Below are positions 18,690-64,000 of a DNA stretch of 64,000 nt, piece by piece. The translations under genes and the position numbers were made by a program. Numbering within the stretch: position 1 is the stretch's first letter; every line of letters begins with the position of its first letter. The stretch is from Dendrobates tinctorius (taxonomy: Eukaryota): NCBI RefSeq assembly GCF_039654945.1, contig NW_027361869.1, forward strand, positions 2,480,001-2,544,000, given 5' to 3'. The notes under the pieces were generated by a model. It made no database searches. It worked only from the letters and a program-made list of their open reading frames with translations, and was not told where the DNA came from.

Positions 18690-21600
18690 CAGTAGAGCGC
18701 GACAGACCCCGCACTACACATGGAGGACAGGTAGAGAGTGACAGAACTACACACGGAGGACAGGTAGAGAGCGACAGACCCCGCACTACACATGGAGGAC
18801 AGGTAGAGAGTGACAGAACTACACACGGAGGACGGGTAGAGAGCAACAGACCCCACACTACACACGGAGGACAGGTAGAGAGCGACAGACCCCGCACTAC
18901 ACACGGAGGACAGGTAGAGAGCGACAGACCCCGCACTACACACGGAGGACGGATAGAGAGCGACAGACCCCGCACTACACACGGAGGACGGGTAGAGAGC
19001 GACAGACCCCGCACAAAACACGGAGGACGGGTAGAGAGCGACAGACCCCACACAAAACACGGAGGACGGGTAGAGAGCGACAGACACCGCACTACACACG
19101 GAGGACAGGTAGAGAGCGACAGACCCCGCACTACACACGGAGGACAGGTAGAGAGCGACAGACCCCGCACTACACACGGAGGACAGGTAGAGAGCGACAG
19201 ACCCCGCACTACAAACGGAGGACGGGTAGAGAGCGACAGACCCCACACTACACATGGAGGACGGGTAGAGAGCGACAGACCCCGCACTACACACGGAAGA
19301 CGGATAGAGAGCGACAGACCCCGCACTACACACGGAGGACGGGTAGAGAGCGACAGACCCCGCACTACACACGGAGGACGGGTAGAGAGCGACAGACCCC
19401 GCACTACACACGGAGGACAGGTAGAGAGCGACAGACCCCACACTACACACGGAGGACAGGTAGAGAGCGACAGACCCCGCACTACACACGGAGGACAGGT
19501 AGAGAGAGACAGACCCCGCACTACACACGGAGGACAGGTAGAGAGAGACAGACCCCGCACTACACACGGAGGACAGGTAGAGAGCGACAGACCCCGCACT
19601 ACACACGGAGGACAGGTAGAGGGCGACAGACCCCGCACTACACACGGAGGACAGGTAGAGAGCGACAGACCCCGCACTACACACGGAGGACAGGTAGAGA
19701 GCGACAGACCCCACACTACACACGGAGGACAGGTAGAGAGTGACAGACCCCACACCGAGGAAAGGTAGAGAGCGACAGACCCCGCACTACACACGGAGGA
19801 CAGGTAGAGAGAGACAGACCCCGCACTACACACGGAGGACAGGTAGAGAGTGACAGACCCCGCACTACACACGGAGGACAGGTAGAGAGTGACAGACCCC
19901 GCACTACACACGGAGGACAGGTAGAGAGAGACAGACCCCGCACTACACACGGAGGACAGGTAGAGAGAGACAGACCCCGCACTACACACGGAGGACAGGT
20001 AGAGAGCGACAGACCCCGCACTACACACGGAGGACAGGTAGAGGGCGACAGACCCCGCACTACACACGGAGGACAGGTAGAGAGCGACAGACCCCGCACT
20101 ACACACGGAGGACAGGTAGAGAGAGACAGACCCCACACTACACACGGAGGACAGGTAGAGAGTGACAGACCCCACACCGAGGAAAGGTAGAGAGCGACAG
20201 ACCCCGCACTACACACGGAGGACAGGTAGAGAGAGACAGACCCCGCACTACACACGGAGGACAGGTAGAGAGAGACAGACCTCGCACTACACACGGAGGA
20301 CAAGTAGAGAGCGACAGACCCCGCACTTCACACGGAGGACAGGTAGAGGGCGACAGACCCCGCACTACACACGGAGGACAGGTAGAGAGCGACAGACCCC
20401 GCACTACACACGGAGGACAGGTAGAGAGAGACAGACCCCACACTACACACGGAGGACAGGTAGAGAGTGACAGACCCCACACCGAGGAAAGGTAGAGAGC
20501 GACAGACCCCTCACTACACACAGAGGACAGGTAGAGAGCGACAGACCTCACACAACACACGGAGAACAGGTAGAGAGCGACAGACCCCACACTACAAACG
20601 GAGGACGGGTAGAGAGCGACAGACCCCGCACTACACACAGAGGACAGGTAGAGAGCGACAGACCCCGCACTACACACAGAGGACAGGTAGAGAGCGACAG
20701 ACCCCGCACTACACACGGAGGACAGGTAGAGAGTGACAGAACTACACACGGAGGACAGGTAGAGAGTGACAGAACTACACACGGAGGACAGGTAGAGAGC
20801 GACAGACCCCGCACTACACATGGAGGACAGGTAGAGAGTGACAGAACTACACACGGAGGACGGGTAGAGAGCAACAGACCCCACACTACACACGGAGGAC
20901 AGGTAGAGAGCGACAGACCCCGCACTACACACGGAGGACAGGTAGAGAGCGACAGACCCCGCACTACACACGGAGGACGGATAGAGAGCGACAGACCCCG
21001 CACTACACACGGAGGACGGGTAGAGAGCGACAGACCCCGCACAAAACACGGAGGACGGGTAGAGAGCGACAGACCCCACACAAAACACGGAGGACGGGTA
21101 GAGAGCGACAGACACCGCACTACACACGGAGGACAGGTAGAGAGCGACAGACCCCGCACTACACACGGAGGACAGGTAGAGAGCGACAGACCCCGCACTA
21201 CACACGAAGGACAGGTAGAGAGCGACAGACCCCGCACTACAAACGGAGGACGGGTAGAGAGCGACAGACCCCACACTACACACGGAGGACGGGTAGAGAG
21301 CGACAGACCCCGCACTACACACGGAAGACGGATAGAGAGCGACAGACCCCGCACTACACACGGAGGACGGGTAGAGAGCGACAGACCCCGCACTACACAC
21401 GGAGGACGGGTAGAGAGTGACAGACCCCGCACTACACACGGAGGACAGGTAGAGAGCGATAGACCCCACACTACACACGGAGGACAGGTAGAGAGCGACA
21501 GACCCCGCACTACACACGGAGGACAGGTAGAGAGAGACAGACCCCGCACTACACACGGAGGACAGGTAGAGAGAGACAGACCCCGCACTACACACGGAGG

Positions 21601-23970
21601 ACAGGTAGAGAGCGACAGACCCCGCACTACACACGGAGGACAGGTAGAGGGCGACAGACCCCGCACTACACACGGAGGACAGGTAGAGAGCGACAGACCC
21701 CGCACTACACACGGAGGACAGGTAGAGAGAGACAGACCCCACACTACACACGGAGGACAGGTAGAGAGTGACAGACCCCACACCGAGGAAAGGTAGAGAG
21801 CGACAGACCCCGCACTACACACGGAGGACAGGTAGAGAGAGACAGACCCCGCACTACACACGGAGGACAGGTAGAGAGTGACAGACCCCGCACTACACAC
21901 GGAGGACAGGTAGAGAGTGACAGACCCCGCACTACACACGGAGGACAGGTAGAGAGAGACAGACCCCGCACTACACACGGAGGACAGGTAGAGAGAGACA
22001 GACCCCGCACTACACACGGAGGACAGGTAGAGAGCGACAAACCCCGCACTACACACGGAGGACAGGTAGAGGGCGACAGACCCCGCACTACACACGGAGG
22101 ACAGGTAGAGAGCGACAGACCCCGCACTACACACGGAGGACAGGTAGAGAGAGACAGACCCCACACTACACACGGAGGACAGGTAGAGAGTGACAGACCC
22201 CACACCGAGGAAAGGTAGAGAGCGACAGACCCCGCACTACACACGGAGGACAGGTAGAGAGAGACAGACCCCGCACTACACACGGAGGACAGGTAGAGAG
22301 AGACAGACCTCGCACTACACACGGAGGACAGGTAGAGAGCGACAGACCCCGCACTTCACACGGAGGACAGGTAGAGGGCGACAGACCCCGCACTACACAC
22401 GGAGGACAGGTAGAGAGCGACAGACCCCGCACTACACATGGAGGACAGGTAGAGAGAGACAGACCCCACACTACACACGGAGGACAGGTAGAGAGTGACA
22501 GACCCCACACCGAGGAAAGGTAGAGAGCGACAGACCCCTCACTACACACAGAGGACAGATAGAGAGCGACAGACCTCACACAACACACGGAGAACAGGTA
22601 GAGAGCGACAGACCCCACACTACAAACGGAGGACGGGTAGAGAGCGACAGACCCCGCACTACACACAGAGGACAGGTAGAGAGCGACAGACCCCGCACTA
22701 CACACGGAGGACAGGTAGAGAGCGACAGACCCCGCACTACACACGGAGGACAGGTAGAGAGCGACAGACCCCGCACTACACACGGAGGACAGGTAGAGAG
22801 CGACAGACCCCGCACTACACACGGAGGACAGGTAGAGAGCGACAGACACCGCACTACACACAGAGGACAGGTAGAGAGCGACAGACCTCACACAACACAC
22901 GGAGGACAGGTAGAGAGCGACAGACCCCGCACTACACACGGAGGACGGGTAGAGAGCGACAGACCCCGCACTACACACGGAGGACGGGTAGAGAGCGACA
23001 GACCCCGCACTACACACGGAGGACGGGTAGAGAGAGACAGACCCCGCACTACACATGGAGGACAGGTAGAGAGCGACAGACACCGCACTACACACAGAGG
23101 ACAGGTAGAGAGCGACAGACCCCGCACTACACACGGAGGACGGGTAGAGAGAGACAGACCCCGCACTACACACGGAGGACAGGTAGAGAGCGACAGACAC
23201 CGCACTACACACAGAGGACAGGTAGAGAGCGACAGACCTCACACAACACACGGAGGACAGGTAGAGAGCGACAGACCCCGCACTACACACGGAGGACGGG
23301 TAGAGAGCGACAGACCCCGCACTACACACGGAGGACGGGTAGAGAGCGACAGACCCCGCACTACACACGGAGGACGGGTAGAGAGCGACAGACCCCGCAC
23401 TACACATGGAGGACGGGTAGAGAGCGACAGACCCCGCACTACACACGGAGGACAGGTAGAGAGCGACAGACCCCACACAACACACGGAGGACAGGTAGAG
23501 AGCGACAGACCCCGCACTACACATGGAGGACGGGTAGAGAGAGACAGACCCCGCACTACACACGGAGGACGGGTAGAGAGCGACAGACCCCGCACTACAC
23601 ACGGAGGACAGGTAGAGAGCGACAGACCCCGCACTACACACGGAGGACAGGTAGAGAGCGACAGACCCCGCACTACACACGGAGGACGGGTAGAGAGCGA
23701 CAGACCCCGCACTACACATGGAGGACGGGTAGAGAGCGACAGACCCCGCACTACACACGGAGGACAGGTAGAGAGCGACAGACCCCACACAACACACGGA
23801 GGACAGGTAGAGAGCGACAGACCCCGCACTACACATGGAGGACGGGTAGAGAGCGACAGACCCCGCACTACACACGGAGGACAGGTAGAGAGCGACAGAC
23901 CCCGCACTACACACGGAGGACAGGTAGAGAGCGACAGACCCCGCACTACACACGGAGGACAGGTAGAGAG
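18690..23970. repeat. Minisatellite of about 5.3 kb, 39-bp unit CACGGAGGACAGGTAGAGAGCGACAGACCCCGCACTACA, with higher-order duplications
   Basis: Direct reading of the tandem units. Variant units recur at offsets of 422 and 2028 bp; the ORF track shows paired ORFs at 19753/21781, 20175/22203 and 20162/22190. Confidence 0.97.
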
Positions 23971-24072
23971 TATTATGTCTCCTTATAGTCTGCAGTGACC
24001 TGATATTGGAGCAGGTTACATACAGGGAGGACACAATGTGCACCTAGCTGCTGCTCCTCCACCTCTGTTGTC

Positions 24073-24485: not shown

Positions 24486-30699
<6,214 letters not shown>

Positions 30700-32040: not shown

Positions 32041-32188
32041 GCGCCATTTTCTTTGTGACGTCAATAGCAGGTGACATTTGACCTCCCATTATTTTATTAT
32101 TTTTTTCTCATTTTCTGACAGTTTTTTTACGGGGAATTTTGAACTCTTGGCAACTTCTGTAATTTTGTTTTTCTCTGGTGCTATAAAG
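32041..32188 (+). promoter_or_regulatory. Candidate promoter: YY1-type CGCCATTTT, perfect CRE, TATA box
   Basis: GCGCCATTTT at 32041-32050; TGACGTCA at 32056-32063; TATAAAG at 32182-32188, 47 bp before the ATG at 32229. Confidence 0.5.
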
Positions 32189-32228
32189 AGAGGATTTCTC
32201 AGAATCTACAGCTGAAAATAAGTGGGAA

Positions 32229-35200
32229 ATGGATGAAGTTTGGATCCTGTCTCTTTGCCTCACCTTACTTGGATTTTTCATTTTTATTTTATCCTTAAAA
32301 ACCAAGCAAGAGCCGGAGCCAGAAAGTATCAGCAAGTCGTCTGGATCCTCCGCAGCGGCCTATTCTAGCTCCGGGGGTAAGAGCCTGGAGGTCGGCGACG
32401 ATGAGCTGGAGAAGATGATGGAGCGGATGAATAAACTCTTAAGTGGAACGGAGCCGACCAAAAAAGAAATCCAACCGGAGAGGAAAAAAGTTCTTCTGGA
32501 GAAGCAAGAACACCTTCCCCATCGCAGAGCAGACACGGATAGCACTAATGAAACCCAAGAGCCAGTGGGCAAGGTGCCAGGGCATACCCAGCCCGCCAAT
32601 CAACTGAGTCATCACAGAGTTCAGGTATGGGCCAGCCCCGTCAGCAATGCCACCGAGAGCGAGCGCAGAATTAGCAGCTCGGGAATTATACAGGGATATT
32701 AATATCGCCTAGGTACCAGACCAGGGTCCAAATCTGGAAGTTTGATTTTTCCATATAGCCACATCTGAGTCATTCTGCTTTCTTTAAAGGGATTTTACAG
32801 TTTTTTATTTTACTTTTTTTTTTTTTTTTTTTTTCCTGCTAGAGCTTAACTGCTGCTTTGCGAAAAGTTCTGCCACTTTCACATATATACTTTGTGTATT
32901 AAGTTCCTGCCATTTTCCAGATTTACTTGATGTGAGTGACAGGTAAAAACTAGAGGAGCGCATAAAGATTTCCAGCGGCCACGACGGAGGACCATTAAAG
33001 CCCTTCGACCCTCCTGCCACCTTCTGACACCCCCAACTCCTCTTCTGATTAGTAGGCCGAACAATCGCGTCTCTCTGGAGCTACTAATCAGAAAGGATGC
33101 TGCAGGTAGGAGGCGAGTCGCAGGGCTTTGGTCCTGCGGCCACTGACTACCGACATGTCCAATGGATCCGAGTACTAAGAATGTTTTTGCTCATGAAAGC
33201 CCATCCTGATGTAGTCTGGCTCATTCAGCTGCTTGGGGGTTGTTGTGGAACACAGACCATGCTCCCTGTTCTTCGGGGGTCTCCTGCATGTCTACGAGGC
33301 AGTTCGCTCAGGTCAGGAGACCACGATCTGTGCTTCACTGACGTTTGATACCAACCTAAGTGCATTGATGCAATACACCTGCATATTTGGTGTTTGTGAA
33401 GCACCCCGACCTGACATTGTTTCGGGCCTATGCTGTAATTGCAGATCCTGATAAGGTAAGAAAAATATGGGGGGGGGGGGGGGGAGAGATGCAGCTGCAG
33501 GCTTTTTTTCTTTATTCAATCACTGAAACTGCATCATGTGACATGGGAGGTATCTGAATGGCTAATAGTCATCTGTAGAGCCCCAGCATCATAATAGGAA
33601 GAGCCTATCTACCCGGAGAGAGAAAATATGAGAAAACCAATATATTGTTTACAGGAGACACAGGCATTCATGTGAGGTCGTCCTTCCATTGTAGTCAGGA
33701 CTGAATTTCTGTTTAAACTACATTGTTCTTGCTCAGGGGCCCTCAATGTCCTCCAAATATGTCACGTCGCTTACTATTGATGGATGTAAAACATGAAATT
33801 ATTTAAAAAAAACATTTTTCTAGTTTTTTTTTTTAATTTTTTTAAAGTTCCAGAATGACTTTTGGTTGGCATATGTTATTCCTAGTTTAGAACTTCAGGG
33901 GTACAGCATGACATGAGGATTGAAAAAAAAAAAAAAAAAAATCGCAGAAGTAGGAATCCCTTCATTGCCTGACATCCAGTCAGCTTTACCCTGAGTGTTC
34001 TAGTAAAGGGGACACGGAACTTGTCATAAATATGTAATTTTTAATATGACATAAATGCCGCTGTTCGGCAACTTTATCGCTTCTAATTGATTGGGCAAGA
34101 GATACCAACAAACTCTGGACAGAGGTTGCGAACGAGTCATTATCAGTACCGATTTCCACTGTCCTCCACTCGTCTACAGGTTTTATAAAGAAAGTTCTTT
34201 CCCCAAATGCAATAACAAAAAATTTGATCAAGACCTGGGCCAGATTTTCAACCTCACTAACGCCGCTCCCATCGCCTCTGATAAAAGTAAGGGACCTACC
34301 TGGCCTTTATTTAGACCGCCCTTTTACTAGGGACACAGACTCTTTACATAAGATAGACGAAAGTCCAGATGCTTTCATAGAGGATGGCGCGATCCTCCCA
34401 CTGCAAGATTTACAAGCCAAATTCCCACATTACCATTTTAACTTTCTTCATTACAACAGGCTCAAAAATTCGATCAGATCCTATTTACAATCTGGACTTC
34501 CACATAGAGAGTTGACTGATTTTGAGAAGTTACTGTCTCAGAGAAATAAACCAAAGGGCGTGTTGGGTAAGTGCTACCAGGTGCTCTTAACCCACTCCAC
34601 TTCGGTTAAACCAGCGTTTATATTGAAATGGGAAAGAGACCTCGAGGTTAAATTGCAAGATTGGGAAGTTGAAAAGATATATAAAAACTCGCATGGTCCT
34701 TCTGGTTGTGTAAGGGTCGAAGAAAACTCTTATAAGGTCCTTACTAGGTGGTATACCACCCCTGACACAAGAAAGAGGTGGCAACCTGAGACATCCTCCA
34801 ATTGCTGGAGATGTCTTGGTGAGGGAGGATCATACCTCCTCATTTGGTGGCAGTGTGATAAAATTCAACCTTTCTGGGAAAAACTGCTTAAAATTTCTGC
34901 GGGACTTTGTCAGCTTCCAAACCCTCCATCCCTTAAGTTGATCTTTCTAAATTGGTCTAGTGACACTGCACAATATAAACACAAAAATCTTCTTGTGTAC
35001 TTGTTAACAGCAGCTAAAATGCTTATCCCCTTACATTGGCTATCACAGAACTGCCCTACCCTGGGAGAATGGTTGCACAAAGTAAACCAAATATATTACT
35101 TAGAAGAAATAATTGCCAGTACGACCTTTAAGATGAATAAATTCAGTTCGACTTGGGAGCCGTGGACACTCTTCAGAGAACCAGATGACTACTTAAACTT

Positions 35201-38200
35201 ACTAAACCCTCAGTAAATCATATCAATCTGCCCCAAGATCAGCTAAACTTGAAGCAACACTGACTAACCAGACAAACAGGGAAAAACAACTGCCGACTGG
35301 ACACCATTCCTGTTGAAATTCCTACCCCTCCCTACCCCCAAATATTTTCCTTTTCTATGTTTTTCCCCTTCTCTCTAACTTCTATCTTTATATTTAATTG
35401 AAAGTTAATACTCTGACGCGACTATTGTATATATAATTACCATTGATCCAAGTTAGTGATCTTGTTTTGGACTTACAAGTTTAAGTTCTTTATAACCTAG
35501 CTATTGTCCGACCTGTCATATGGCAAAATGCCACAATTAGCAATATTAGAGTTGCGAACAGTTGTTCGAAACGTCCGGACAGAAATCTATAAAGCCAATG
35601 AGGCTTGCTCGTACTTGTCGCATGTACAGTCATGGCCAAAAGTTTAGAGAATGACACAAATATTATATTTTCACATGATCTGCTGGCCTCTGGTTTTTGT
35701 GTGTGTTTGTCAGATGTTTTTATCACATACAGAAATATAATTGCAATCATATTATGAGTAACAAAAGGTTATATTGACAGAATGAGTTAATGCAGCAAGT
35801 CAATATTTGCAGTGTTGACCCTTCTTCTTCAGGACCTCAGCAATTCTCCCTGGCATGCTCTCAATCAACTTCTGGATCAATTCCTGACTGATAGCAGTCC
35901 ATTCTTGCAAAATCAATGCTTTTATTTTGTCTGAATTTGAAGGTTTTTGTTTGTCCACCCGTCTCTTGATGATTGACCACAAGTTCTCAAAGGGATTAAG
36001 ATCTGGGGAGTTTCCAGGCCATGGTCCCAAAATCTCTATGTTTTGTTCCCTGAGCCATTTAGTTATCACCTTTGCTTTATGGCAAGGTGCTCCATCATGT
36101 TGAAAAAGGCATTGTTGATCGCCAAACTGCGCTTGGACGGTTGGGAGAAGTTGCTCTTGGAGGACATTCTGGTACCATTCTTTATTCATTGCTGTGTTTT
36201 TAGGCAAGACTGAGAGAGAGCCCATTCCCTTGGCTGAGAAGCAACCCCACACATGAAAGGTTTCAGGATGCTTGACAGTTGGCATGAGACAAGACTGGTG
36301 GTAGCGCTCACCTGGTCTTCTCCGAATAAGCCGTTTTCCAGATGTCCCAAACAATCGAAAAGGGGATTCATCAGAGGAAATGACTTTACCCCAGTCCTCA
36401 GCAGTCCACTCCCTGTACCTCTTGCAGAATATCAGTCTGTCCATGATGTTTTTCCTGGAGAGAAGTGGCTTCTTTGCTGCCCTCCTTGAGACCAGGCCTT
36501 GCTCCAAGAGTCTCCGCCTCACAGTGCGTGCAGATGCACTCACACCTGCCTGCTGCCATTCCTCAGCAAGCTCTGCACTGCTGGTAGCCCGATCCCGCAG
36601 CTGAAACACTTTTAAGAGACGGTCCTGGCGCTTGCTGGTCTTTCTTGGGCGCCCTGGAGCCTTTTTGGCAACAAGAGAACCTCTCTCCTTGAAGTTCTTG
36701 ATGATGCGATAGAAAGATTGCACCTCAGTCAACAATCTAGCTGTGATACTCTTCCCTGTTAGGCCGTTTTTGTGCAGTGCAATGATGACTGCACGTGTTT
36801 CTTAGAGATAACCATGGTTAACAGAAGATAAACAATGATGCCAAGCACCATCCTCCTTTTAAAGTGTCCAGTGGTGTCATTCTTACTTAATCATGACAGA
36901 TTGATCTCCAGCCCTGTCCTCATCAACACCCACACCTGTGTTAATGGAGCAATCACTGAAACGATGTTAGCTGGTCCTTTTAAGGCAGGGCTGCAATGAT
37001 GTTGAAATGTGTTTTGGGGGATAAAGTTCATTTTCTAGGCAAATATTGACTTTGCAAGTAATTGCTGTTAAGCTGATCACTCTTAATAACATTCTGGAGT
37101 ATATGCAAATTACCATTAGAAAAAATGAAGCAGTAGACTTTGTAAAAATTAATATTTGTGTCATTCTCTAAACTTTTGGCCATGACTGTATTGTTATTCT
37201 TGTCTATGTTAAAACAATATAAGGATGTTTAAAACAAATAAATGCCGCTGTTCTCCTGAATCCGGCGTTGTTTTTCTTTTGTTCCTGAGCCTCTCTGTTC
37301 CTGAGATATGGCCTGTTCTTCCTTGGATATAAATTACTATTTTCAGCCAAGTGGGCAGGGTCTTCAAAAAGACTCTCATAGAGAAGAGTGGATGACCACA
37401 CCCAGTTGGTAAAAATATTTATATACCGGGAAAAGGAAGCCATATCTCAGGAACGGAGCGGAGCAAAAACAAAAGAAAAACATCTCCGGATTCAGGAGAA
37501 CAGCGGCATTTATATCGGGTACAAAAAAAATACATAGGTCATCTTTAAGTCAGAAAGAAATGACAGGATACACAAAGAAATTCATTCATTCCATTACAAC
37601 AGCAGGCGGGGATGTGATGGGTCAGCGTTGTTGTGCAACCTTCCATCGTAGGGAGTTTGAAGAAATGGAGAAGTGTCTGCTGCAAGAAATTGTGTCTGGG
37701 GAAGCAGGACAATGGAGACAAAGCATTGCTCAATAGATCAAAAACGTTTGGTAATGTTTCACAGCTCCTCTAGTGACAACTCTAACAATGGTGTTCAGTT
37801 CTTCATAGATTGGATGAATCTATAGGAACATTGGGTTGGTCGGAAATAGTAGTAAAGGCTCAGACCCAAATACGTATTAAGTCTTCATGCACCCAATGTA
37901 ATAGCGCACCTATACTTGGCAATGTGCTGAGCCTTACTGTAGGCCTCTAATATAAAGGGGTATCTCAGGAAGAAAAAAGTTATCACCTATGTACAGGATT
38001 ACGTCAAGATTGATGAGGGCACTATCACTGAGATCACCATTGATCACCAGAACTGGAGACATGTCCCTTGTTTGAATGGAGCAGTAGTCATCTCTGGAGG
38101 TCTCATAGGGAATGACAGGAGCAGCAGTCATCTCTGGAGGTCTCATAGGGAATGACTGGAGCAGCAGTCATCTCTGGAGCGCTTGTAGGGAATGAATGGA

Positions 38201-46030: not shown

Positions 46031-47345
46031 CAGTCATGACAGAAAGTGTTGGCACCTTTGAAATTGTTCCAGAAAATGAAATGTTTGTCCCAGAAAATTA
46101 TTGCAATTACACATGTTTTGTTACACACGTTTATTTCCTTTGTGTGTTTTGGACCAGCACAAAAAGAGAAGAAAAAGGCAAACTGGACATAATTTCATAA
46201 TACCCCAAAATCGGGCCGGACATAATTGTTGGCACCCTCAACTTAATATTTGGTTGTGCAATAAATAACTGCAATCAATCGCTTCGTATAACCATCCACA
46301 GGCTTCTTACACCTCTCAGCTGGAATTTTGGACCATTCTTTTTTTGCAAACTGCTCCTGGTCTCTCATATTTGAAGGCGCCTTCTCCCAACAGCAATTTT
46401 AAGATCTCTCCACAGGTGTTCTATAGGGTTTAGATCCGGACTCATTGCTGGCCACTTCAGGACTCTCCAGCGCTTTGTTTCCATCCATTTCTGGGGTGAA
46501 GTGTGTTTGGGGCCATTGTCCTGCTTGAAGATCCATGACCTAGGATGCAAACCCAGCTTTCTGACTCTGGGCCCAACTTTGCAACCCAAAATCATTTGGT
46601 AACCTTCAGAATTCATGATGCTTTGCACACAGTCAAGGCACCCAGTGCCAGAGGCAGCAAAACAACCCAAAAACCTCCACCATATTAGACTGTAGGTACT
46701 GTGTTCTTTTCTTTGTAGGCCTCATTACATTATCAGTAAGGAGTAGAATAATGTGCTTTATCAAAAAGCTCTATCATGATCTCATCTGTGCACAAGATGC
46801 TGTTCCAGAAGAATTTTGGCTTACTCATGTATATTTTGGAAAACTGCAGTCTACCTTTTTATGTCTCTGTGTCAGCATTTCATTCAAAAGTCGGCGGATT
46901 GTCCGCACTGACACTGATGCACCCTGAGCCGGCAGGACAGCTTGAAGCTCTTTGCAACTTGATTGTCGCTGCTTATCCACCATCCAGACTATCCTGCGTT
47001 TCAACCTTTCATCAATTTTTCTTTGCCATTCACGTCCAGGTAGATTAGCTACAGTGCCATGGGTTGTAAACTTCTTGTTTACGTTGCGCACAATGGACAA
47101 AGGACCTTCAATATCTCTGGGGATGGACTTGTCACCTTGAGATTGTTGATATTTGACAACAATTTGGGTTCTCAAGTTCTCAGACAGTTCTCTTCTCCTC
47201 ATTCTGTTCTCCATGCCTAGTGTGGCACACACAGACACACAATGCAAACATTGAGTCAACTTCTCCCTCTTTTCATCTGGTTTCAGGTGTGATTTTCATA
47301 TTGCCCACATCTGTTACTTGCCATAGGTGAGTGTGAACCAGCATA
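46031..47345 (-). mobile_element. Decayed Tc1 transposon, one end missing
   Basis: TA-CAGTCATGACAGAAAGTGTTGGCACC end. Minus-strand fragments RRRELSENLRTQIV..., GCFAASGTG, FKQDNGPKHT and WPAMSPDLNPIEHLW, with frameshifts. Confidence 0.9.
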
Positions 47346-53209: not shown

Positions 53210-54655
53210 AGTCTTTGTATGGGACTATCGGCTAAGATAGCTGCTGACCAAGCCATGGCTCCTTTGTATGGGACTATCGGCCGAGATAGCTGCTGGCTGA
53301 GCCAGGGCTCATTTGAATAGGGCAGTCGGGTGAGATAGCTGTCGGCTAAGCCAGGCTCCTCTCTACAGGACAATCAGGTGAAATATCTGCTGGCTGAGCT
53401 AGGGCTCTCTTTATGGGACTAATAGGTGAGATAGCTGCCAGCTGAGCCAGGGCTCCTCTGTATAAGACAGTTGGGTGAGATAGCTGCCAGCTGAGCCAGG
53501 GCTCCTCTGTATAAGACAGTTGGGTGAGATAGCTTCCGGCTGAGCCAGGGCTCCTCTGTATAGGACAGTCAGGTGAGATAGCTTCCGCCTGAGCCAGGGC
53601 TCCTCTGTATAGGACAGTCGGGTGAGATAGCTGCCGGTTGAGCCAGAGCTCCTCTGTATAGGACAGTCGGGTGAGATAACTGCCGGCCGAGCCAGGGCTC
53701 CTCTGTATAGGACAGTCGGGTGAGCTAGCTGCTGGCTGAGCTAGGGCTCTCTTTATGGGACTATCCGGTGAGCCAGGGATTCTCTGAATAGGACAGTTGG
53801 GCAAGATAGCTACAGGCTGAGACAGGGCTTGTCGGTATTGGACATGCGGACGAGATAGCTGCTAGCCAATCCAGGGCTCCTCTATATGGGATAGACTGGC
53901 GAGATAGCTGTCAGCTGAGCTAGGGCTCCTCTGTATCAGATAGTCGGACTAGATAGCTGCTGGCTAAGCCAGGGCTCCTCTGTATGAAACTATTGGGCGA
54001 AATAGCTGCCAGTCAATCCAGGGCTCCTGTATATGGGTCAGTTGGGAAAGATAACTGCCGGATGAGACAGGGCTCCTCTGTATGGGACTATTGGGCGAGA
54101 TAGCTGCCGGACGAGACAGGGCTCCACTGTATGGGACTATTGGGCGAGATAGCTGCCGGACGAGACATGGCTCCTCTGTATGGGATTATTGGGCGAGATA
54201 GCTGCCAGACGAGACAGGGCTCTAAAGTATGGGACTATTGGGTGAGATAGCTGCCGGACGAGACAGGGCTCCTCTGTATGGGACTATAGAGACAGATAGC
54301 CGCCAGATGAGACAGGACTCCTCTGTATGGGACTATTGGGCGAGATAGCTGCCGGACGAGACAGGGCTCCTCTGTACGGGACTACTGGGCGAAATAGCTG
54401 CCAGACGAGACAGGGCTCCTCTGTATGGGACTATAGAGACAGATAGCTGCCAGACGAGACAAGGCTCCTCTATATGGGACTATTGAGTGAGATAGCTGCC
54501 AGACGAGACAGGGCTCCTCTGTATGGGACTATTGAAAGAGATAGCTGCCAGACGAGACAGCGCTCCTCTGTTTGAAACAGTAGTGTGAGATAGCTTCCAG
54601 CTCAACTAGGGCTCTTCTGTTTTGGACAATAGGGTGAAATAGCTGCTGGCCGAGC
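53210..54655. repeat. 49-bp minisatellite (GGGCTCCTCTGTATAGGACAGTCGGGTGAGATAGCTGCCGGCTGAGCCA), about 29 copies, two subtypes
   Basis: Period 49 (for example 53451 and 53500). The 5' half carries CTGAGCCA/GACAGT and the 3' half carries ACGAGACA/GACTATT. Confidence 0.92.
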
Positions 54656-56261
54656 CCTTTTTCATCAGACAACCATCTTGAGTGTATGGGGTCTTTACTC
54701 TCACAGACACACACGATTTAATATGATAGTACTCATTGATGGCTGGTGGTCAGTGTGTGTAATCATGAAGGGTTAACCAGACTCCCATCAGCGGTGACCA
54801 ACATCTGGCAGTGATCAGGCCCTCTCTACTCCCAGCCCTAATCCCTTCAGTGGGGAAGGATCCTAAAACAGATCTTGGTGTTTTACAGCGACGTGTACAT
54901 TAAAGGTTTCGGATTTCAGAAAAAAGTAACAGCATTTTTTTTTTTATCCTGGGTTTCTGGGAATGAGAGGGGTGGAGAAGAGGAAGCTGGGAAGTGGCCT
55001 TCAGAAAAAATTAGGTCAGACATGCGGTGGAGGAGACAGGATGCTCAGTAAGTTTCTGGGGCCTGTAACTACTAAACTAGTGGTGGGATTATACTGATGA
55101 ATACAGTAGTGATGGGCCGGGGGGCCGAAAGAGGACAAACTTCTAAAATCACAGCAGTCAGTGATGTCGCCCAGCGCGTCCCGGGCGATTACTGTAAATG
55201 GTCAGCGAGGAAAACCATCTTATATTTCTTCCAGGTTTAATGCCGTTATCCATGATAATATGTGAATAGGGCGGAAAATAATCTGTTGTATTAGATGTAG
55301 ATAATTGTCACATTATATGTGTAAATAATGTTTTAATATCTATCTATCTATCTATCTGACCTTACTTGGGCTTTCATTCATTTGGCTGCCTTAACCCAAT
55401 GCAATGGATAAAGTAAGGTAATTTATCGGTGTCGCCCCCAGCACTCAGTGGCACATGTCTCCTTTGACCACCTAGCTACATTCTGATAAACGTTCATAGA
55501 AAAATGTCCTCCAACTTTCTTAAATCTCTAATTAACAAATATACATGAAAAATGAATAAACAAAGTCTAAAGATAGAAAAAATACGATACCAGATACCAA
55601 ATACGTTAAAATAAAATATTTGGTATCAGAGGGTGTGCGATTGCCTGGAGTAATTAAGTACTATAATATTTATTCCATGAACGACAAAATGAAAAAAAAT
55701 ATATAAAAATGTCACAATCGCTGTTTGGCTTTGGTCACTTTGCTATCAAAATATGACATAACAAGAAACGAGAAATTTATATAAACATCAAATTGGTAAA
55801 AATAAAAACTACAACTTGCGCTGAAAAAAAAGCAACAAGCCCCCTGATACAATACTATTGACTGAAAAATATAAAGTTATCGCTCTTGGAACGTGAATTG
55901 GAAAAGTAAAAACTGAAGAGAGGTCCAGGGGACGCTGACTTTGGCTAAACCTGGATCGGACCTTGTTGGGCTGGTGTACTTACACTTTCTGACAGTGTCC
56001 AATCGGTGTTGACAATATTGGGACACACCCCTATGACAAGGGAAATGGTTACACACATTTATTCGTAAATTTAAAAAATGAATAACAGATGAACAACATT
56101 GAGTAATCAGTAAAGATTCTCCAGAATTGTTATTTAACCACTTAGCTCATATGGACATAGCAGTACATCTGAACAGTGCTCCACAAGTGGGGAGGGTGAT
56201 CAGTAACTGAGCTCTCTTCACACGTCATCGATGCTGGCTGTGTTAAATAGTACTATGGGTT

Positions 56262-59200
56262 CATCATACTGTGTGTGTGGGTGTGGGGGAATGTACTGTG
56301 GGGATGTGGGGGCATCATACTGTGTGTGGGGGAATGTACTGAGGGGTATCATACTGTGTGGGGAAATGTACTGTGGGGACATCATACTGTGTGTGGGGGG
56401 AATGTACTGTGGGGGCATCATACTGTGTGTGGGGGAATGTACTGTGGGGACATCATACTGTTTGGGGAAATGTACTGTGGGGACATCATACTGTGTGTGG
56501 GGGGAATGTACTGTGGGGGCATCATACTGTGTGGGGGAATGTACTGTGGGGGCATCATACTGTGTGTGGGGGAATGTACTGTGGGGACATCATACTGTGT
56601 GTGGGAATGTACTGTAGGGACATCATACTGTGTGTGGGAATGTACTGTGGGGGCATCATACTGTGTGTGGGGAATGTACTGTGGGGCATCATACTGTGTG
56701 TGGGGGAATGTACTGTGGGGACATCATACTGTGTGTGTGGGAATGTACTGTGGGGTATCATACTGTGTGGGGGAATGTATTGCGGGGTATCATACTGTGT
56801 GTGGGGGGAATGTACTGTGGGGTATCATACTGTGTGGGGGAATGTACTGTGGGGTATCATACTGTGTGGGGGAATGTATTTCGGGGTATCATACTGTGTG
56901 TGGGGGGAATGTACTGTGGGGACATCATACTGTGTGTGAGGGAATGTTCTGTGAGGTATCATACTGTGTGGGGGAATGAACTGCGGGGTATCATACTGTG
57001 TGTGGGGGGAATGTACTGTGGGGACATCATACTGTGTGTGGGGGGAATGTACTGTGGGGACATCATACTGTGTGTGGGGGAATGTACTGTGGGGGCATCA
57101 TACTGTGTGTGGGGGAATGTACTGTGGGGACATCATACTGTGTGTGGGGGAATGTACTGTGGGGTATCATACTGTGTGGGGGAATGTACTGTGGGGACAT
57201 CATACTGCGTGTGGGGGGAATGTACTGTGGGGACATCATATTGTGTGGGGGAATGTACTGTGGGAACATCATACTGTGTGTGGGGGAATGTACTGTGGGG
57301 TATCATACTGTGTGGGGGAATGTATTGCGGGGTATCATACTGTGTGTGGGGGGAATGTACTGTGGGGACATCATACTGTGTGGGGGAATGTACTGTGGGG
57401 AATCATACTGTGTGTGGGGGAATGTACTGTGGGGACATCATACTGTGTGTGAGGGAATGTACTGTGGGGTATCATACTGTGTGGGGAAATGTACTTTGGG
57501 GACATCATACTGTGTGTGGGGGAATGTACTGTGGGGACATCATACTGTGTGTGAGGGAATGTACTGTGGGGGCATCATACTGTGTGTGGGGGAATGTACT
57601 GTGGGGGCATCATACTGTGTGGGGGAATGTACTGTGGGGACATCATACTGTGTGTGGGGGAATGTACTGTGGGGTATCATACTGCGTGGGGGGAATGTAC
57701 TGTGGGGGCATCATACTGTGTGTGGGGGAATGTACTGTGAGGCATCATACTGTGTGTGGGGGAATGTACTGTGGGGGCATCATACTGTGTGTGGGGGAAT
57801 GTACTGTGGGGACTTCAAACTGTGTGTGGGGGAATGTACTGTGGGGCTTCATACTGTGTGTGGGGGAATGTACTGTGGGGGCATCATACTGTGTATGGGG
57901 GAATGTACTGTGGGGACATCATACTGTGTGTGGGGGAATGTACTGTGGGGTATCATACTGTGTGTAGGGGCATCATACTCTGTGTGGGGGAATGTACTGT
58001 GGGGGCATCATACTGTGTGTGGGGGAATGTACTATGGGGCATCATACTGTGTGTGGGGGAATGTACTGTGGGGTATCATACTGTGTGTGGGGGAATGTAC
58101 TGTGGGGACATCATACTGTGTGTGGGGAGAATGTACTGTGGGGACATCATACTGTGTGTGGGGGAATGTACTGTGGGGCATCATACTGTGTGTGGGGGAA
58201 TGTACTGTGGGGTATCATACTGTGTGTGGGGGAATGTACTGTGGGGACATCATACTGTGTGTGGGGGGAATGTACTGTGGGGACATCATACTGTGTGTGG
58301 GGGAATGTACTGTGGGGCATCATACTGTGTGTGAGGGAATGTACTGTGGGGTATCATACTGTGTGGGGAAATGTACTTTGGGGACATCATACTGTGTGTG
58401 GGGGAATGTACTGTGGGGACATCATACTGTGTGTGAGGGAATGTACTGTGGGGGCATCATACTGTGTGTGAGGGAATGTACTGTGGGGGCATCATACTGT
58501 GTGGGGGAATGTACTGTGGGGACATCATACTGTGTGTGGGGGAATGTACTGTGGGTTATCATACTGCTTGGGGGGAATGTACTGTGGGGGCATCATACTG
58601 TGTGGGGGAATGTACTGTGAGGCATCATACTGTGTGTGGCGGAATGTACTGTGGGGGCATCATACTGTGTGTGGGGAAATGTACTGTGGGGACTTCAAAC
58701 TGTGTGTGGGGGAATGTACTGTGGGGCTTCATACTGTGTGTGGGGGAATGTACTGTGGGGGCATCATACTGTGTATGGGGGAATGTACTGTGGGGACATC
58801 ATACTGTGTGTGGGGGAATGTACTGTGGGGTATCATACTGTGTGTGGTGGCATCATACTGTGTGTGGGGGAATGTACTGTGGGGGCATCATACTGTGTGT
58901 GGGGGAATGTACTGTGGGGTATCATACTGTGTGTGGGGGAATGTACTGTGGGGCATCATACTGTGTGTGGGGAATGTACTTATGGGGTATCATACTGTGT
59001 GGGGGAATGTACTGTGGGGACATCATACTGTGTGTGGGGGGAATGTACTGTGGGGACATCATACTGTGTGGGGGGGAATGTACTGTGGGGACATCATACT
59101 GTGTGGGGAAAATGTACTGTGGGGACATCATACTGTGTGTGGGGGGAATGTACTGTGGGGACATCATACTGTGTGTGGGGGGGAATGTACTGTGGGGACA

Positions 59201-60945
59201 TCATACTGTGTGGGAGGAATGTACTGTGGGGACATCATACTGTGTGTGGGGGGAATGTACTGTGGGGACATCATACTGTGTGTGGGGGAATGTACTGTGG
59301 GGCATCATACTGTGTGTGGGGGAATGTACTGTGGGGGCATCATACTGTGTGTGGGAGAATGTACTGTGGGGGCATCATACTGTGTGTGTGGGAATGTACT
59401 GTGGGACATCATAATGTGTGTGGGGGAATGTACTGTGGGGGCATCATACTGTGTATGGGGGAATGTACTGTGGGGGCATCATACTGTGTGTGGGGGAATG
59501 TACGGTGGGGCATCATACTGGGTGTGGGGAAAGTACTGTGGGGCCATCATACTGTTTGTGGGGGCATCATACTGTGTGTGTGGGAATGTACTGTGGGGAC
59601 ATCATACTGTGTGTGGGGGAATGTACTGTGTGGCTTCATACTGTGTGTGGGGGAATGTGCTGTGGGGGCATCATACTGTGTATGGGGGAATGTACTGTGG
59701 GGACATCATACTGTGTGTGGGGAAATGTACTGTGGGGCATCATACTGGGTGTGGGGGGAATGTACTGTGGGGCCATCATAATGTTTGTGGGGGTATCATA
59801 CTGTGTGTGTGGGAATGTACTGTGGGGACATCATACTGTGTGTGGGGGAATGTACTGTGTGGCATCATACTGTGTGTGGGGGAATGTGCTGTGGGGGCAT
59901 CATACTGTGTATGGGGGAATGTACTGTGTGGCATCATACTGTGTGTGGGGGAATCTACTGTGTGACATCATACTGTGTGCGGGGGAATCTACTGTGGGGC
60001 ATCATACTGTGTGTGGGGGAATGTACTGTGGGGCATCATACTGCGTGTGGGGGAATGTACTGTGGGGGCATCATACTGTGTGTGGGGGAATGTACTGTGT
60101 GTGGGGGCATCATACTGTGTGTGTGGGAATGTACTGGGGGGCATAATACTGTGTGTGTGAGAATGTACTGTGTGTGGGGGCATCATACTGTGTGTGGTGG
60201 AATGTACTGGGGGGCATAATACTGTGTGTGGGGGAATGTACTGTGTGTGGGGGCATCATACTGTGTGTGGTGGAATGTACTGGGGGGCATAATACTGTGT
60301 GTGTGGGAATGTACTGTGGGGCATCATACTGGGTGTGGGGGGGAATGTACTGTGGGGCCATCATACTGTGTGTGGGGGCATCATACTGTGTGTGTGGGAA
60401 TGTACTGTGGGGACATCATACTGTGTATGGGGGAATGTACTGTGGGGCATAATACTGTGTGTGTGGGAATGTACTGTGGGGCATCATACTGGGTGTGGGG
60501 GGGAATGTACTGTGGGGCCATCATACTGTGTGTGGGGGCATCATACTGTGTGTGTGGGAATGTACTGTGGGGACATCATACTGTGTGTGGGGGAATGTAC
60601 TGTGGGGCATCATACTGTGTGTGGGGGAATGTACTGTAGGGCATCATACTGTGTGTGGGGGAATGTACTGTGGGGCACCATACTGTGTGTGGGGGAATGT
60701 ACTGTGGGGCATCATACTGTGTGTGGGGGAATGTACTGTGGGGCATCATACTGTGTGTGGGGGAATGTACTGTGGGGCATCATACTGTGTGTGGGGGAAT
60801 GTACTGTGGGGCATCATACTGTGTGTGGGGGAATGTACTGTGGGGCATCATACTGTGTGTGGGGGAATGTACTGTGGGGCATCATACTGTGTGTGGGGGA
60901 ATGTACTGTGGGGCACCATGCTGTGTGTTGGGATCATACTGTGTG
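56262..60945. repeat. G-rich minisatellite of about 4.7 kb, 32-36-bp unit CATCATACTGTGTGTGGGGGAATGTACTGTGGGGG
   Basis: Direct reading; unit length varies with the TG and G run lengths. Confidence 0.97.
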
Positions 60946-62069
60946 CTGTCTATGTCTTATGGCATCAGCTGAAGCTGAGTTCTGATCACTGCGGTTAACC
61001 ATAAAGATTTCGGACTTTTCATTCCTCACAGCCAATAAACTTTTCTGATATTTTTCTACATCTTTACAAGTTGAAAATCATATTTTATTATTTGCTTTTA
61101 TCATAATGACACAACATTTTTTGTGCTATTTATGACTTTTCATTAGTTTTGGAATGTAAACTTTTTTTCCACTTCTTAACGATTACTAAATATCCTGTGC
61201 AGTCACTACTGAGTCATCAGAATATCGGCGACTTATAAAAAACACCCTTCATTTTACGCTCATTTGTCTTTGTGTCTAAAAGGAGAGAAAATGTGACCTA
61301 TGTTGTAACCACTTCCCCGAGATGTCTGAATCCAGGAGCATCTGCATTTGGTTAGTATCAAGATACAAATTTGTTAGTGCATATTTTGTGTATTTTGTCA
61401 CTTTTTGCTCTGTGTCACCAGCTTGGAACTTCCACACAAATCGTAAAGCGAGCCTGGCAGCTTGGAAATGATGTGCGATCTATGGGCAGCGGGATAGAGA
61501 GCGCAAAGAGCTGAGCAGATTCATATATAGGTTCCTGGGAAAAGATTTAGAACGAATGTTTTTTTTTTTTTCCTTGAAATGACAGCATTTACTATTCGTA
61601 GGAGTCCGATAGGCAGTTCTACTCTATTAGGACCGCCCACTGGACTCTTAAATACAGAAAGAGTCAAGAATTCAATGAATGAATTACAAGTTATACTAAA
61701 TTTTATTTCCACAAACCAAGATATAAATCCGCTCAGCTCCTTCTGCGCTATAATATTCTGCGGGAAGATCAGACATCATGTTCAATATGGCAGGTTTCCA
61801 TTAAAAAATATAGGGGACTGAAAGTTCATATGGACTGTAAGAAATATATGGGCAGAAATATGTATTTTTGTTTAAAGCAGGGTTTTTTGTTAAATGCATT
61901 TTTTTCATTTTTACAATGTGTTTTTCATATCACAATCTGCATTGAAAAAATAGAAATCTTGCAATTTTCACACTGGCGCTATTATAGACTTATATTTCCG
62001 TTGTTTAGAAGACATTATAGACTTTTAAAAGTCTCATTATTATCACAGACAGGATTACAATATCAGGGA

Positions 62070-62595
62070 ACACCTCTATATACAGTAGATAACACAGGAT
62101 CTATCATTCACAGTAGGTGATGTCACAGCTCACCTCCTCTTCCTGTATAATGACTGATATCACTTCTATATACAGTAGATAACAGAGGATTCACTATTCA
62201 CAATAGGTAATGTCACAGCTCACCTCCTCCCGCACAATGACTGATAACACCTCTATATACAGTAGATAACACAGGACCCACCAGTCACAATAGGTGATGT
62301 CACAGCTCACCTTCTCCTGTACAATGACTGATAACACCTCAATATACAGAAGATAACAGAGGATCCAGCATTCACAATAGGTGATGTCACAGCTCACCTC
62401 CTCCTCCTGTACAATGATGGATAACATCTCTATATACAGAAGATAACAGAGGATCCAGCATTCACAATAGGTGATGTCACAGCTCACCTCCTCCAGAATA
62501 ATGACTGTCAACACCTCTATATACAGTGGATAATGCAAGATCCACCATTCACAGTAGATGATGTCACAGCTCACCTTCTCATCCTGTATAATGAC
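62070..62595. repeat. Tandem repeat of about 87-90 bp, 6 copies
   Basis: GTCACAGCTCACC recurs at about 62122, 62212, 62298, 62385, 62476 and 62562. Confidence 0.9.
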
Positions 62596-63466
62596 CTTTA
62601 CACACGCTTATTAGATGCTGCAATACAAAAGATAGTGTCAGGCACAGTGTATTGCTGCTAATGTACATGTGCATTTCCTGAAAGAACAGTAAGTATGAAT
62701 CTAGAATACTCCAGGGGCCAGTATGAAAATTGCAAGAATTCTATATTTTTTTCCAATACAGATCATGATATGAGAAATAAAAATAAATACCACATTTAAA
62801 AAAGAATAAATTTTACATAAACTGTAATTACATTTCTGATGGCACATTTTCTTTACGCACCTTATTCAGGTTCTGTAAAGTGTCAAATAGTAGTGAACAA
62901 ATTATAAATGCCAGACCCCAATACGTCTTCAAAGCTGTTGCTTGAAGCTACGAGGTCCGAATGCAAAACTGGTACGAACGTATCATTTGCCATATATACC
63001 TCGATATGCATTAAGTGTCCCTTTAAAGGCAGATGTTTTGGATTTATGATGCTATGCACTATACTATATTGTAAGATTAGTTTTTACATTTTTTTTAAAT
63101 AAAACAACAACAAAAAACTTCTCAAAGGAGAAGCAGTAATAAAATACCGTAAGTTAAAAAATTCTTCACTTTTGACCTGGTGACAGGTTCTCTTTGAGAG
63201 TGGAATGGACTGCGATATCCACCACATGTGAACATGCCCTAAGTTTGGATTTAGTTGTATAATTTAGATTGATGGATCATTGACACTTTTTTTTTAGATC
63301 TTTGATATGTTGAATCATTATACCTCACGTTCAGAGAATAGATACCATTGCCTCCTCAAGATCCCCATCATCATATTCCCTTATTCTCCACTAGATTGAA
63401 TGAAACCCTTTCCTTCTACCCAAGATTATCAATATTTAAGGACTTTGTAGAGAGGTAAAGAGAGAT

Positions 63467-64000
63467 ATGGCTTCTTCAAAATCAGCAGTGGTTGTGTTGC
63501 TTGGAATTTTCTTGGTTGTCAAAAGTCAAAACCTTATTAAAAATCCCAAGGAGGTGAATTTGGAAGGACGTCTCTTCATCAGTGAAGTCAACCCAGATAA
63601 CCCCGGGCATGATACTGCTGAATTTATTGAACTCCGTCACACAAGCGAACAAAATGTCTCTCTCGATGGTTATACACTGGTTCTCTATAATGGAAAAACG
63701 GACACAGCCTATAAAGTCCTCGACTTAACTGGAAACTTTACTGATAAAAAAGGATTTTTCCTAATTGGATCTGCAAGTGTTAAACCAGTTCCCACCATTA
63801 TCCTGCCACCCAATACCATTCAGAACGGACCGGATGCCATAGCTCTTTATTTTGGAAAGGGACCTTACGTCAATGCGATGGGTGTAATCCGTGACGGGCT
63901 GGTGGATGCCCTGGTACACAAGACGAAGAGCACGGACCAAGCTGATGGGCTTCTCAATGTCCTCACACCAGGAATGGAGGCCTTCTTGGAGGATGTCAAT
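63467..64000 (+). CDS. Secreted or membrane protein with a lamin-tail-like (LTD) domain of bacterial type; runs off the window (first 178 aa)
   Basis: Stop-free from ATG 63467 (context GATATGG) to the window end: MASSKSAVVVLLGIFLVVKSQ (signal-peptide-like)...RLFISEVNPDNPGHDTAEFIELRHTSEQNVSLDGYTLVLYNGKTDTAYKVLDLTGNFTDKKGFFLIGS...NTIQNGPDAIALY...LVDALVH... Acceptor ccactag at about 63394. Confidence 0.85.
   Translation, partial: MASSKSAVVVLLGIFLVVKSQNLIKNPKEVNLEGRLFISEVNPDNPGHDTAEFIELRHTSEQNVSLDGYTLVLYNGKTDTAYKVLDLTGNFTDKKGFFLIGSASVKPVPTIILPPNTIQNGPDAIALYFGKGPYVNAMGVIRDGLVDALVHKTKSTDQADGLLNVLTPGMEAFLEDVN

Follow-up and report, generated by a model that had tools for sequence, protein, structure and literature searches.

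A dendrobatid frog exon opens a conserved cell-surface protein with lamin-tail repeats of bacterial form

What does a lamin-tail domain (LTD) of bacterial form do behind a signal peptide in a frog genome, and how did it come to be there? The question is raised by the end of a 64,000-nt stretch of Dendrobates tinctorius DNA (the window; contig NW_027361869.1, positions 2,480,001 to 2,544,000, forward strand), where an open frame runs off the last nucleotide. An original prediction, made from the letters of the window, read the frame as an undescribed extracellular protein, possibly of bacterial ancestry. Here we analyse the frame, its relatives and the available reports on them, and we find that it begins a conserved membrane protein for which a receptor role in granulocytes can be tentatively proposed.

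The open frame and its gene

Translation of the plus strand from 63467 to 64000 gives 178 residues with no stop, and the frame, which begins stop to stop at 63440, continues past the window edge, in agreement with the original prediction. The hydrophobic leader named there is present (residues 7–18, mean Kyte-Doolittle hydropathy 3.43), and hydropathy places a putative signal peptide at residues ~1–20 (63467–63526, +), directly after which frog orthologues share a conserved QNLIKN start. The LTD sequence motifs that had been listed are found in the translation, as are both N-glycosylation sequons, matched by sequence pattern at N63 (NVS, 63653–63661, +) and N90 (NFT, 63734–63742, +). A Pfam scan, which had been suggested as a check, detects the LTD core (PF00932) at residues 33–128 (63563–63850, +), with 38.2 bits against a gathering cut-off of 34.3 and an E value of 2e-9. 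Because the Pfam match lies above its cut-off and 407 of 1387 longer candidate proteins match the window protein at E ≤ 0.001, the frame is real and no chance ORF. The closest of the 120 matches listed is a Ranitomeya imitator protein of 1058 aa (P0006), whose residues 1–178 are 94% identical to the frame over 100% of the query. The window frame is thus the opening part of a genuine frog gene for a cell-surface protein, specifically a coding exon, open at the window end, for residues 1–178 of a ~1060-aa type I membrane protein. The exon had been described as missed by the ORF track; it is absent from that track because it meets the window edge, but its orthologues are already annotated in RefSeq and UniProt.

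The 5′ end of the exon was expected to be spliced from 55047 to 63395. The donor GTAAGT after 55047 is indeed present and would close a putative 5′ exon (ATG at 55041, exon end at 55047; 55041–55053 with the donor, +) in which the ATG-Leu spacing matches that of Xenopus. The AG at 63395 has a better pyrimidine tract than the 63441 site but, like an acceptor at 63425, yields early stops once joined to this donor, and both candidates were rejected. Joining the donor to 63441, behind an acceptor AG that ends at 63440, gives an 11-residue in-frame extension that is as long as those of X. tropicalis and X. laevis and shares 6 of 11 residues with the extension in X. tropicalis and with the S version in X. 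laevis, although the putative 5′ exon supplies just the first two of these residues. The stretch between this likely exon start and Met 63467 (63441–63466, +) aligns with N-terminal extensions of Xenopus and Leptodactylus. Among 54 GTRAG sites in 40001–63394, six have an ATG at the required spacing and one has ATG-Leu. On this sequence evidence 63441 is more likely the acceptor than 63395, and the putative first intron measures ~8.4 kb. The downstream Met is the start in most frog gene models, so both translation starts may be used. Purine-rich sites a short way upstream of where the putative 5′ exon ends (54978–54995, +) are taken to be PU.1/ETS-like and regarded as a weak lead: RRGGAAG occurs twice in 347 nt where the window average predicts 0.21, and GGAAGT once where it predicts 0.125.

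Host repeats had been said to flank the frame, and frog tandem repeats and Tc1 elements do so. Arrays of 35 bp (134 copies, 56305–60932) and 87 bp (62069–62595) lie inside the putative first intron, an array of 49 bp lies at 53216–54654, and a long tandem array fills ~18600–24000. A Tc1/mariner transposase frame at 35800–36801 (−) has 333 codons from stop to stop with matches to HTH_Tnp_Tc3_2 and DDE_3, and further Tc1 fragments lie at 46365–47295 (−). Exons at ~9800–14100 (+), with no Pfam match in single frames, presumably belong to a gene resembling AMDHD2 (N-acetylglucosamine-6-phosphate deacetylase), and exons at 25380–29678 (+) belong to a DUF4615 gene (PF15393, E 8.5e-5, under the cut-off) that we take to be C8orf33-like. 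Two further plus-strand frames have no Pfam match: one of 171 codons (32187–32702) whose first Met is followed by a hydrophobic leader, and one of 388 codons (34050–35216) that presumably resembles the end of a LINE ORF2.

Architecture, fold and acidic sites

The window sequence ends at residue 178, and the full-length architecture is taken from the 94%-identical P0006. In order, the predicted protein comprises a signal peptide, a block of extended LTD, degenerate LTD and SEA-like domain that occurs twice, one transmembrane (TM) helix, and a ~20-residue tail bearing a YxxΦ motif. In the profile built from the matches, each repeat is a unit of ~190 aa made of the LTD core and a C-terminal extension ending in two cysteines; the window holds the first of the four (63557–64000, +; positions 4–146 of the 193-position profile). 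Four repeats are found in every one of the 119 full-length vertebrate orthologues. A C-terminal TM segment follows in 111 of them, and the tail contains YxxΦ in 108 of those 111; platypus has Phe in place of the Tyr. The motif lies about seven residues after the TM helix, behind a basic stop-transfer stretch, and is not C-terminal. The P0006 ectodomain contains eight sequons, and LTD is the sole Pfam domain found in P0006, which has no match to SEA, to nuclease domains (EEP, endonuclease I) or to DUF4876. Amphioxus and other non-vertebrate-type relatives carry up to 12 repeats, and 5 of the 12 such proteins examined have an FxNPxY tail. The earlier picture of a signal-peptide protein built on an extracellular LTD is therefore right about that domain but incomplete, because the orthologues are single-pass membrane proteins of ~1060 aa with four repeats and two SEA-like domains.

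The modelled window domain (pLDDT 85.5) is predicted to be a lamin-type Ig-like β-sandwich. Lamin structures are its top Foldseek matches (probability 1.00, E 1.7e-4), and it superimposes on the lamin B1 Ig-fold with Z 8.8 and an rmsd of 3.0 over 102 aligned residues. At the sequence level, a search of PDB sequences returns lamin B1 alone, at non-significant E values of 0.47–0.73. The likeness to lamins A/C and B1 is thus one of core fold; unlike them, the frog domain is extracellular and ~80 residues longer, and the protein lacks a coiled-coil rod. With its signal peptide, TM helix and lone LTD among Pfam domains, P0006 does not belong to the lamins or intermediate filaments. The best fold match across the whole extended repeat is the DUF4876 protein BT_1938 (4q1z; Z 13.0, 175 residues aligned, rmsd 3.1; Z 9.4 for the window domain model), a bacterial lipoprotein encoded beside a TonB-dependent transporter, with which it shares 13% identity.

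An AlphaFold model of P0006 from an 89-sequence alignment (mean pLDDT 77.6, pTM 0.39) contains four β-sandwiches, ferredoxin-like domains at 390–494 and 890–999, and the TM helix; at this pTM the packing of the domains is not fixed. When the full-length model was searched with Foldseek, all matches were multi-domain ones without meaning (TM-score ~0.1). The two ferredoxin-like domains match SEA folds at Z 6.4–6.8 (MUC16 6.8, Trop2 6.7), middling scores that are tied with or below those of RAMP and Cas6 folds, and their secondary structure fits the β-α-β-β-α-β order of SEA. Like the SEA-bearing type I proteins MUC16, Trop2, IA-2 and SorCS2 (Z 5.5–6.8), the frog protein would thus have a membrane-proximal ferredoxin-like domain; unlike them, it has no Pfam SEA match and carries LTD repeats as its ligand-side modules. 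The G-S-hydrophobic motif, at which SEA domains are cleaved, is seen in two non-vertebrate-type proteins alone. Taken as modelled, the protein has a membrane-receptor layout of SEA type built on the bacterial extended LTD.

The four repeats differ in two motifs. An acidic motif, E40-N42-D44-D49-E52-E55 in the window protein (63584–63631, +), is kept in repeat 1 of 118/119 vertebrate orthologues and in repeat 3 of 118/119, but in repeats 2 and 4 of none (0/119); it also occurs in 126/131 bacterial repeats and 52/88 non-vertebrate-type repeats. An apparent loss of D49 in repeat 3 (2%) was traced to an alignment shift, the pattern count being 118/119. The second motif, QNGPD at residues 119–123 (63821–63835, +), follows the same pattern, QxGxD being present in repeat 1 of 119/119, repeat 3 of 114/119, repeat 2 of 3/119, repeat 4 of 2/119 and 129/131 bacterial repeats. 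From their chemistry and invariance, the acidic residues may form a metal site that binds Ca2+. The repeats are net acidic (median charge −9 and −8), so DNA binding would need metal bridging. Furthermore, nearly all vertebrate repeats keep the RC and NxC cysteines, which occur in 35/131 and 30/131 bacterial repeats, respectively.

Distribution and origin of the repeat

By top similarity and tree placement with frog members, we assign the window gene as the dendrobatid orthologue in the family named si:ch211-183d21.1, MGC145260 or "LTD domain-containing protein"; the window protein is 75% identical to the X. laevis L copy. Among the matches listed, named orthologues of ~950–1100 aa, under names such as MGC145260 and si:ch211-183d21.1, come from frogs, caecilians, newt, turtles, alligator, birds, squamates, lungfish, coelacanth, bichir, bowfin and teleosts; none of the named matches listed is from shark or lamprey. 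Coelacanth has two paralogues (P0022 and P0059). Relatives in amphioxus (P0002 and P0005) are longer than the vertebrate orthologues and are of two types, both with eight repeats, one without and one with a SEA-like juxtamembrane segment and an NPxY tail. The family, presented earlier as vertebrate, is present in vertebrates but predates them, because it has relatives in amphioxus and among non-vertebrate-type records. One of the latter, EukProt P0129, joins a Frizzled CRD to six LTD repeats, which group within the animal-type clade, and to a TM helix.

The databases label the listed orthologues as uncharacterized or LTD domain-containing, and two of the labels are plainly wrong: a Pelobates orthologue (P0042) is misnamed glycerol-3-phosphate dehydrogenase and a Varanus orthologue (P0094) XPB helicase. 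A Zootoca model (P0090) is fused to Fn3 domains, probably by a gene-model fusion. For the two gene names we found list entries and no description in a literature search that lay mostly outside subscription papers, and the available text of PMC7820862, PMC6745481 and 10.1101/2022.05.18.492404 holds nothing on this LTD family. The sequence itself is thus already in databases under automatic names and a description of the family is absent from the literature found, which bears out the earlier view of it as functionally undescribed.

Loss in mammals, as first proposed, is ruled out by full-length monotreme orthologues in echidna (LOC119941760) and platypus (LOC114806082), and the loss has to be narrowed to Theria. 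The echidna protein aligns end to end with the frog protein at 34% identity. Used as a query, it retrieves the platypus protein first, at 85%, followed by turtle and bird proteins at ~41–43%, with no marsupial or placental orthologue among the 120 listed of 199 matches. This search covered the 8000 best candidates of 585–1862 aa in a protein set, where broken genes cannot appear. Since a therian orthologue should rank near the top of these matches, the gene was likely lost in therian mammals.

On the bacterial side, a GTDB pattern search found at least 615 stretches, of which 598 were confirmed. The best 78 loci come from Bacteroidota, Chloroflexota, Pseudomonadota, Cyanobacteriota, Planctomycetota and others and are 37–49% identical to the frog domain, in accordance with the prediction of an LTD of the ExeM-like QNGxDA type. 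We scanned 60 of the 78 carriers, the other 18 being left out as shortened, short or near-duplicate, among other reasons. An EEP or endonuclease I domain is present in 40 of the 60, a proportion given without a background control; many have a T9SS sorting tail and two a carbohydrate-binding module. The animal proteins share with these bacterial LTD-repeat proteins (ExeM/NucH, T9SS nucleases) the ~190-aa repeat and the acidic and QNGxDA motifs, and differ from them in lacking EEP and endonuclease I domains and in having SEA-like domains, a TM helix and a tail. They are not themselves ExeM/NucH nucleases: the window protein scores 16.5 bits against a cut-off of 1300 for the NCBIfam ExeM family (NF033680), the animal proteins scanned have no nuclease domain, and the LTD of ExeM has a weak likeness to the window domain (E 0.0016). 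Atlas searches returned LTD clusters alone, bacterial ones for the window domain and chordate ones, below 0.9, for P0129.

Phylogenetic analysis indicates that the animal repeats have a single origin and descended vertically within animals; for rows beyond vertebrates and amphioxus, the label "animal" is drawn from architecture. In a FastTree analysis of 294 repeats, 96 vertebrate, amphioxus and animal-like rows form one clade (0.993) that contains none of the 77 GTDB rows. In an IQ-TREE analysis of 86 rows (35 animal-type, 44 GTDB, 7 others), the animal clade is supported at 100/98 and occurs in 200/200 bootstrap trees, the bootstrap being not fully settled, and the window protein groups with Ranitomeya and Xenopus at 100/98. 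One candidate member, P0136, falls outside the clade in the FastTree analysis, carries PKD domains and was treated as non-animal.

The direction of transfer is a separate matter. The repeat is present in many bacterial phyla at an identity to the frog domain far above that of lamin (E ≥ 0.47), and every named eukaryotic match among those listed is a chordate; on this distribution, passage from bacteria to animals is the direction we consider probable. The trees are less decisive. With 14 short bacterial LTDs as outgroup, the animal repeats lie inside the long bacterial repeats with weak support (SH-aLRT 90/88/84), but a tree in which the long bacterial repeats form a clade excluding animals is not rejected (p-AU 0.757; constrained tree 10.25 log-likelihood units higher), and a transfer, plausible and consistent with the observed distribution, is therefore unproven. 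This result, together with the lack of a supported bacterial sister of the animal clade among the 86 rows and the presence of P0129 with its Fz domain in that clade, would also suit a long repeat with a deeper eukaryotic history, which a unicellular ancestor had either inherited or acquired and which was then widely lost; against the chordate-only matches and the bacterial spread just described, we rate such a history as the less probable one. No mobile vehicle was found, because the phage collection has no match and the three matching plasmid records among 72,556 are all non-mobilizable. Bacterial contamination or an assembly artefact, which the existence of close bacterial homologues might suggest and which had already been considered unlikely, can be dismissed in view of the grouping with Ranitomeya and Xenopus, the orthologues on vertebrate chromosomes, and the frog repeats and Tc1 elements around the gene.

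Expression and possible function

Expression of the Xenopus orthologue, MGC145260, points to granulocytes. Supplementary file 5 of PMC9314398 contains eight marker rows for the gene, all in myeloid clusters, and not in gut or skin as had been suggested. Specifically, the gene marks all four clusters labelled eosinophil (adult 5, 6 and 7, tadpole 11), being detected in 48% of cells in cluster 5 versus 3.2% elsewhere and in 42.8% versus 2.1% in tadpole cluster 11 (log2FC 2.66); it also marks cluster 52 (myeloid, with mpo as top marker) and cluster 49, one of five macrophage clusters, and has no marker row in that file in either of the two mast-cell clusters. Cluster 5 expresses mpo, epx, mmp9, ncf1, cybb and prtn3, plus itgb2 and other migration genes (PMC9314398), and file 5 has no cluster labelled neutrophil, so that "peroxidase-positive granulocyte" is the safe reading. 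In this one species and one atlas, the orthologue marks granulocytes.

Zebrafish data are of a different kind. In regenerating retina, the zebrafish gene is among the top 50 depleted in mpeg1+ cells (log2FC −10.3; PMC6423051); in the complementary fraction, photoreceptor, glial and progenitor genes prevail, and that paper's main text mentions no granulocyte marker there. The retinal enrichment in fish may thus reflect non-immune expression. A photoreceptor role was considered and is not supported, the gene name being absent from the supplements, possibly incomplete as files, of PMC8405809, PMC5806438 (one small file) and PMC9901936, and of the cell landscape in PMC8517238.

The function towards which we lean, without calling it probable, is that of a calcium-dependent capture and endocytic receptor of granulocytes. 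The exon would then start a single-pass surface or granule-membrane glycoprotein of peroxidase-positive granulocytes, in which the invariant acidic/QNGxD cluster lets repeats 1 and 3 bind Ca2+ and serve as ligand sites, while repeats 2 and 4 and the SEA-like domains make up a stalk. The YxxΦ tail, or FxNPxY in several non-vertebrate-type relatives, would sort the protein through adaptor complexes between granule or endosome and the surface. If the repeats, stalk and tail work in this way, the protein would capture some extracellular polymer and take it up. Since the repeat serves mostly as an accessory module in nucleases that bacteria secrete, the likeliest ligand class would be nucleic acid outside cells or a polymer of microbial surfaces. 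The repeat would have entered animals once, before the chordate radiation and probably from bacteria, and the gene would later have been lost in therians. LDL-receptor family tails bear NPxY, and LAMP and CD164 work as resident granule and lysosome glycoproteins. The frog protein resembles such endocytic receptors (LDL-receptor family, LAMP/CD164) in having a repeat ectodomain with putative Ca2+ sites and a short tail whose tyrosine motifs recur as counted above; its ectodomain is unrelated to theirs, and its uptake function is predicted from motifs. In favour of such a receptor, ExeM without its LTD is slower to degrade DNA in vitro (PMC6085458). Against it stand the Phe in the platypus tail, the weak similarity of the ExeM LTD, and the finding that this LTD is dispensable for DNA clearing in vivo, its removal having little effect on plates (PMC6085458). 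The same paper, in the parts available, calls the role of LTDs outside lamins open. DNA as the ligand, an analogy by association with nucleases, is doubtful.

The best-surviving alternative is a Ca2+-stiffened adhesion rod, with itself or a counter-receptor of the host as its partner when granulocytes adhere or migrate, and with no uptake of cargo. Ig-like folds that follow one another and bear acidic sites, SEA-like domains such as those of Trop2 and mucins, the high repeat numbers in non-vertebrate-type relatives and co-expression with itgb2 and migration genes in cluster 5 would all suit such a rod, and it would also fit non-immune expression in fish retina. We nevertheless consider it possible rather than likely, since the sorting motifs of the tail are conserved and the invariant residues, kept within repeats 1 and 3 and lost in their neighbours 2 and 4, are unlike those of a uniform rod. 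The protein might instead be, in the manner of LAMP or CD164, a resident membrane glycoprotein of granules or lysosomes whose ectodomain lines the lumen and scaffolds or shields against granule enzymes. The closeness of YxxΦ to the TM helix, the eight sequons and the granulocyte-restricted marker pattern would accord with this role, which seems unlikely to us because YxxΦ is not C-terminal and acidic sites kept almost unchanged for ~450 million years point to a specific ligand and not a coat. Improbable, finally, is the capture of metal or metal chelates for nutritional immunity in the manner of DUF4876 lipoproteins on TonB-dependent transporters: BT_1938 is the best whole-repeat fold match and DUF4876 proteins are described as putative transporter lids (10.1101/2023.03.17.533168, in the part available) and as iron-regulated (PMC10434189, likewise), but the identity is 13%, the close bacterial relatives (37–49%) are nuclease or adhesin modules and not lids, and a common fold alone shows no function.

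The family offers a single conserved vertebrate gene of bacterial LTD form that is testable in zebrafish and Xenopus and in which two degenerate repeats serve as an internal control for two intact ones. A fuller scenario, which we put forward as a speculative one, is that early animals captured an accessory module of bacterial extracellular nucleases, amplified it and anchored it to a membrane protein of the endocytic route, and that the vertebrate granulocyte receptor binds extracellular DNA, be it from traps, biofilms or microbes, through Ca2+; such a receptor class would be innate-immune, would extend from fish to platypus and would have been lost in marsupials and placentals. Should the granulocyte-receptor reading hold, innate immunity would gain a so far undescribed component that work on human and mouse could never show, granulocytes of non-mammalian vertebrates would gain a practical surface marker, and the family would be a candidate for an ancient bacteria-to-animal transfer with a clean therian loss.
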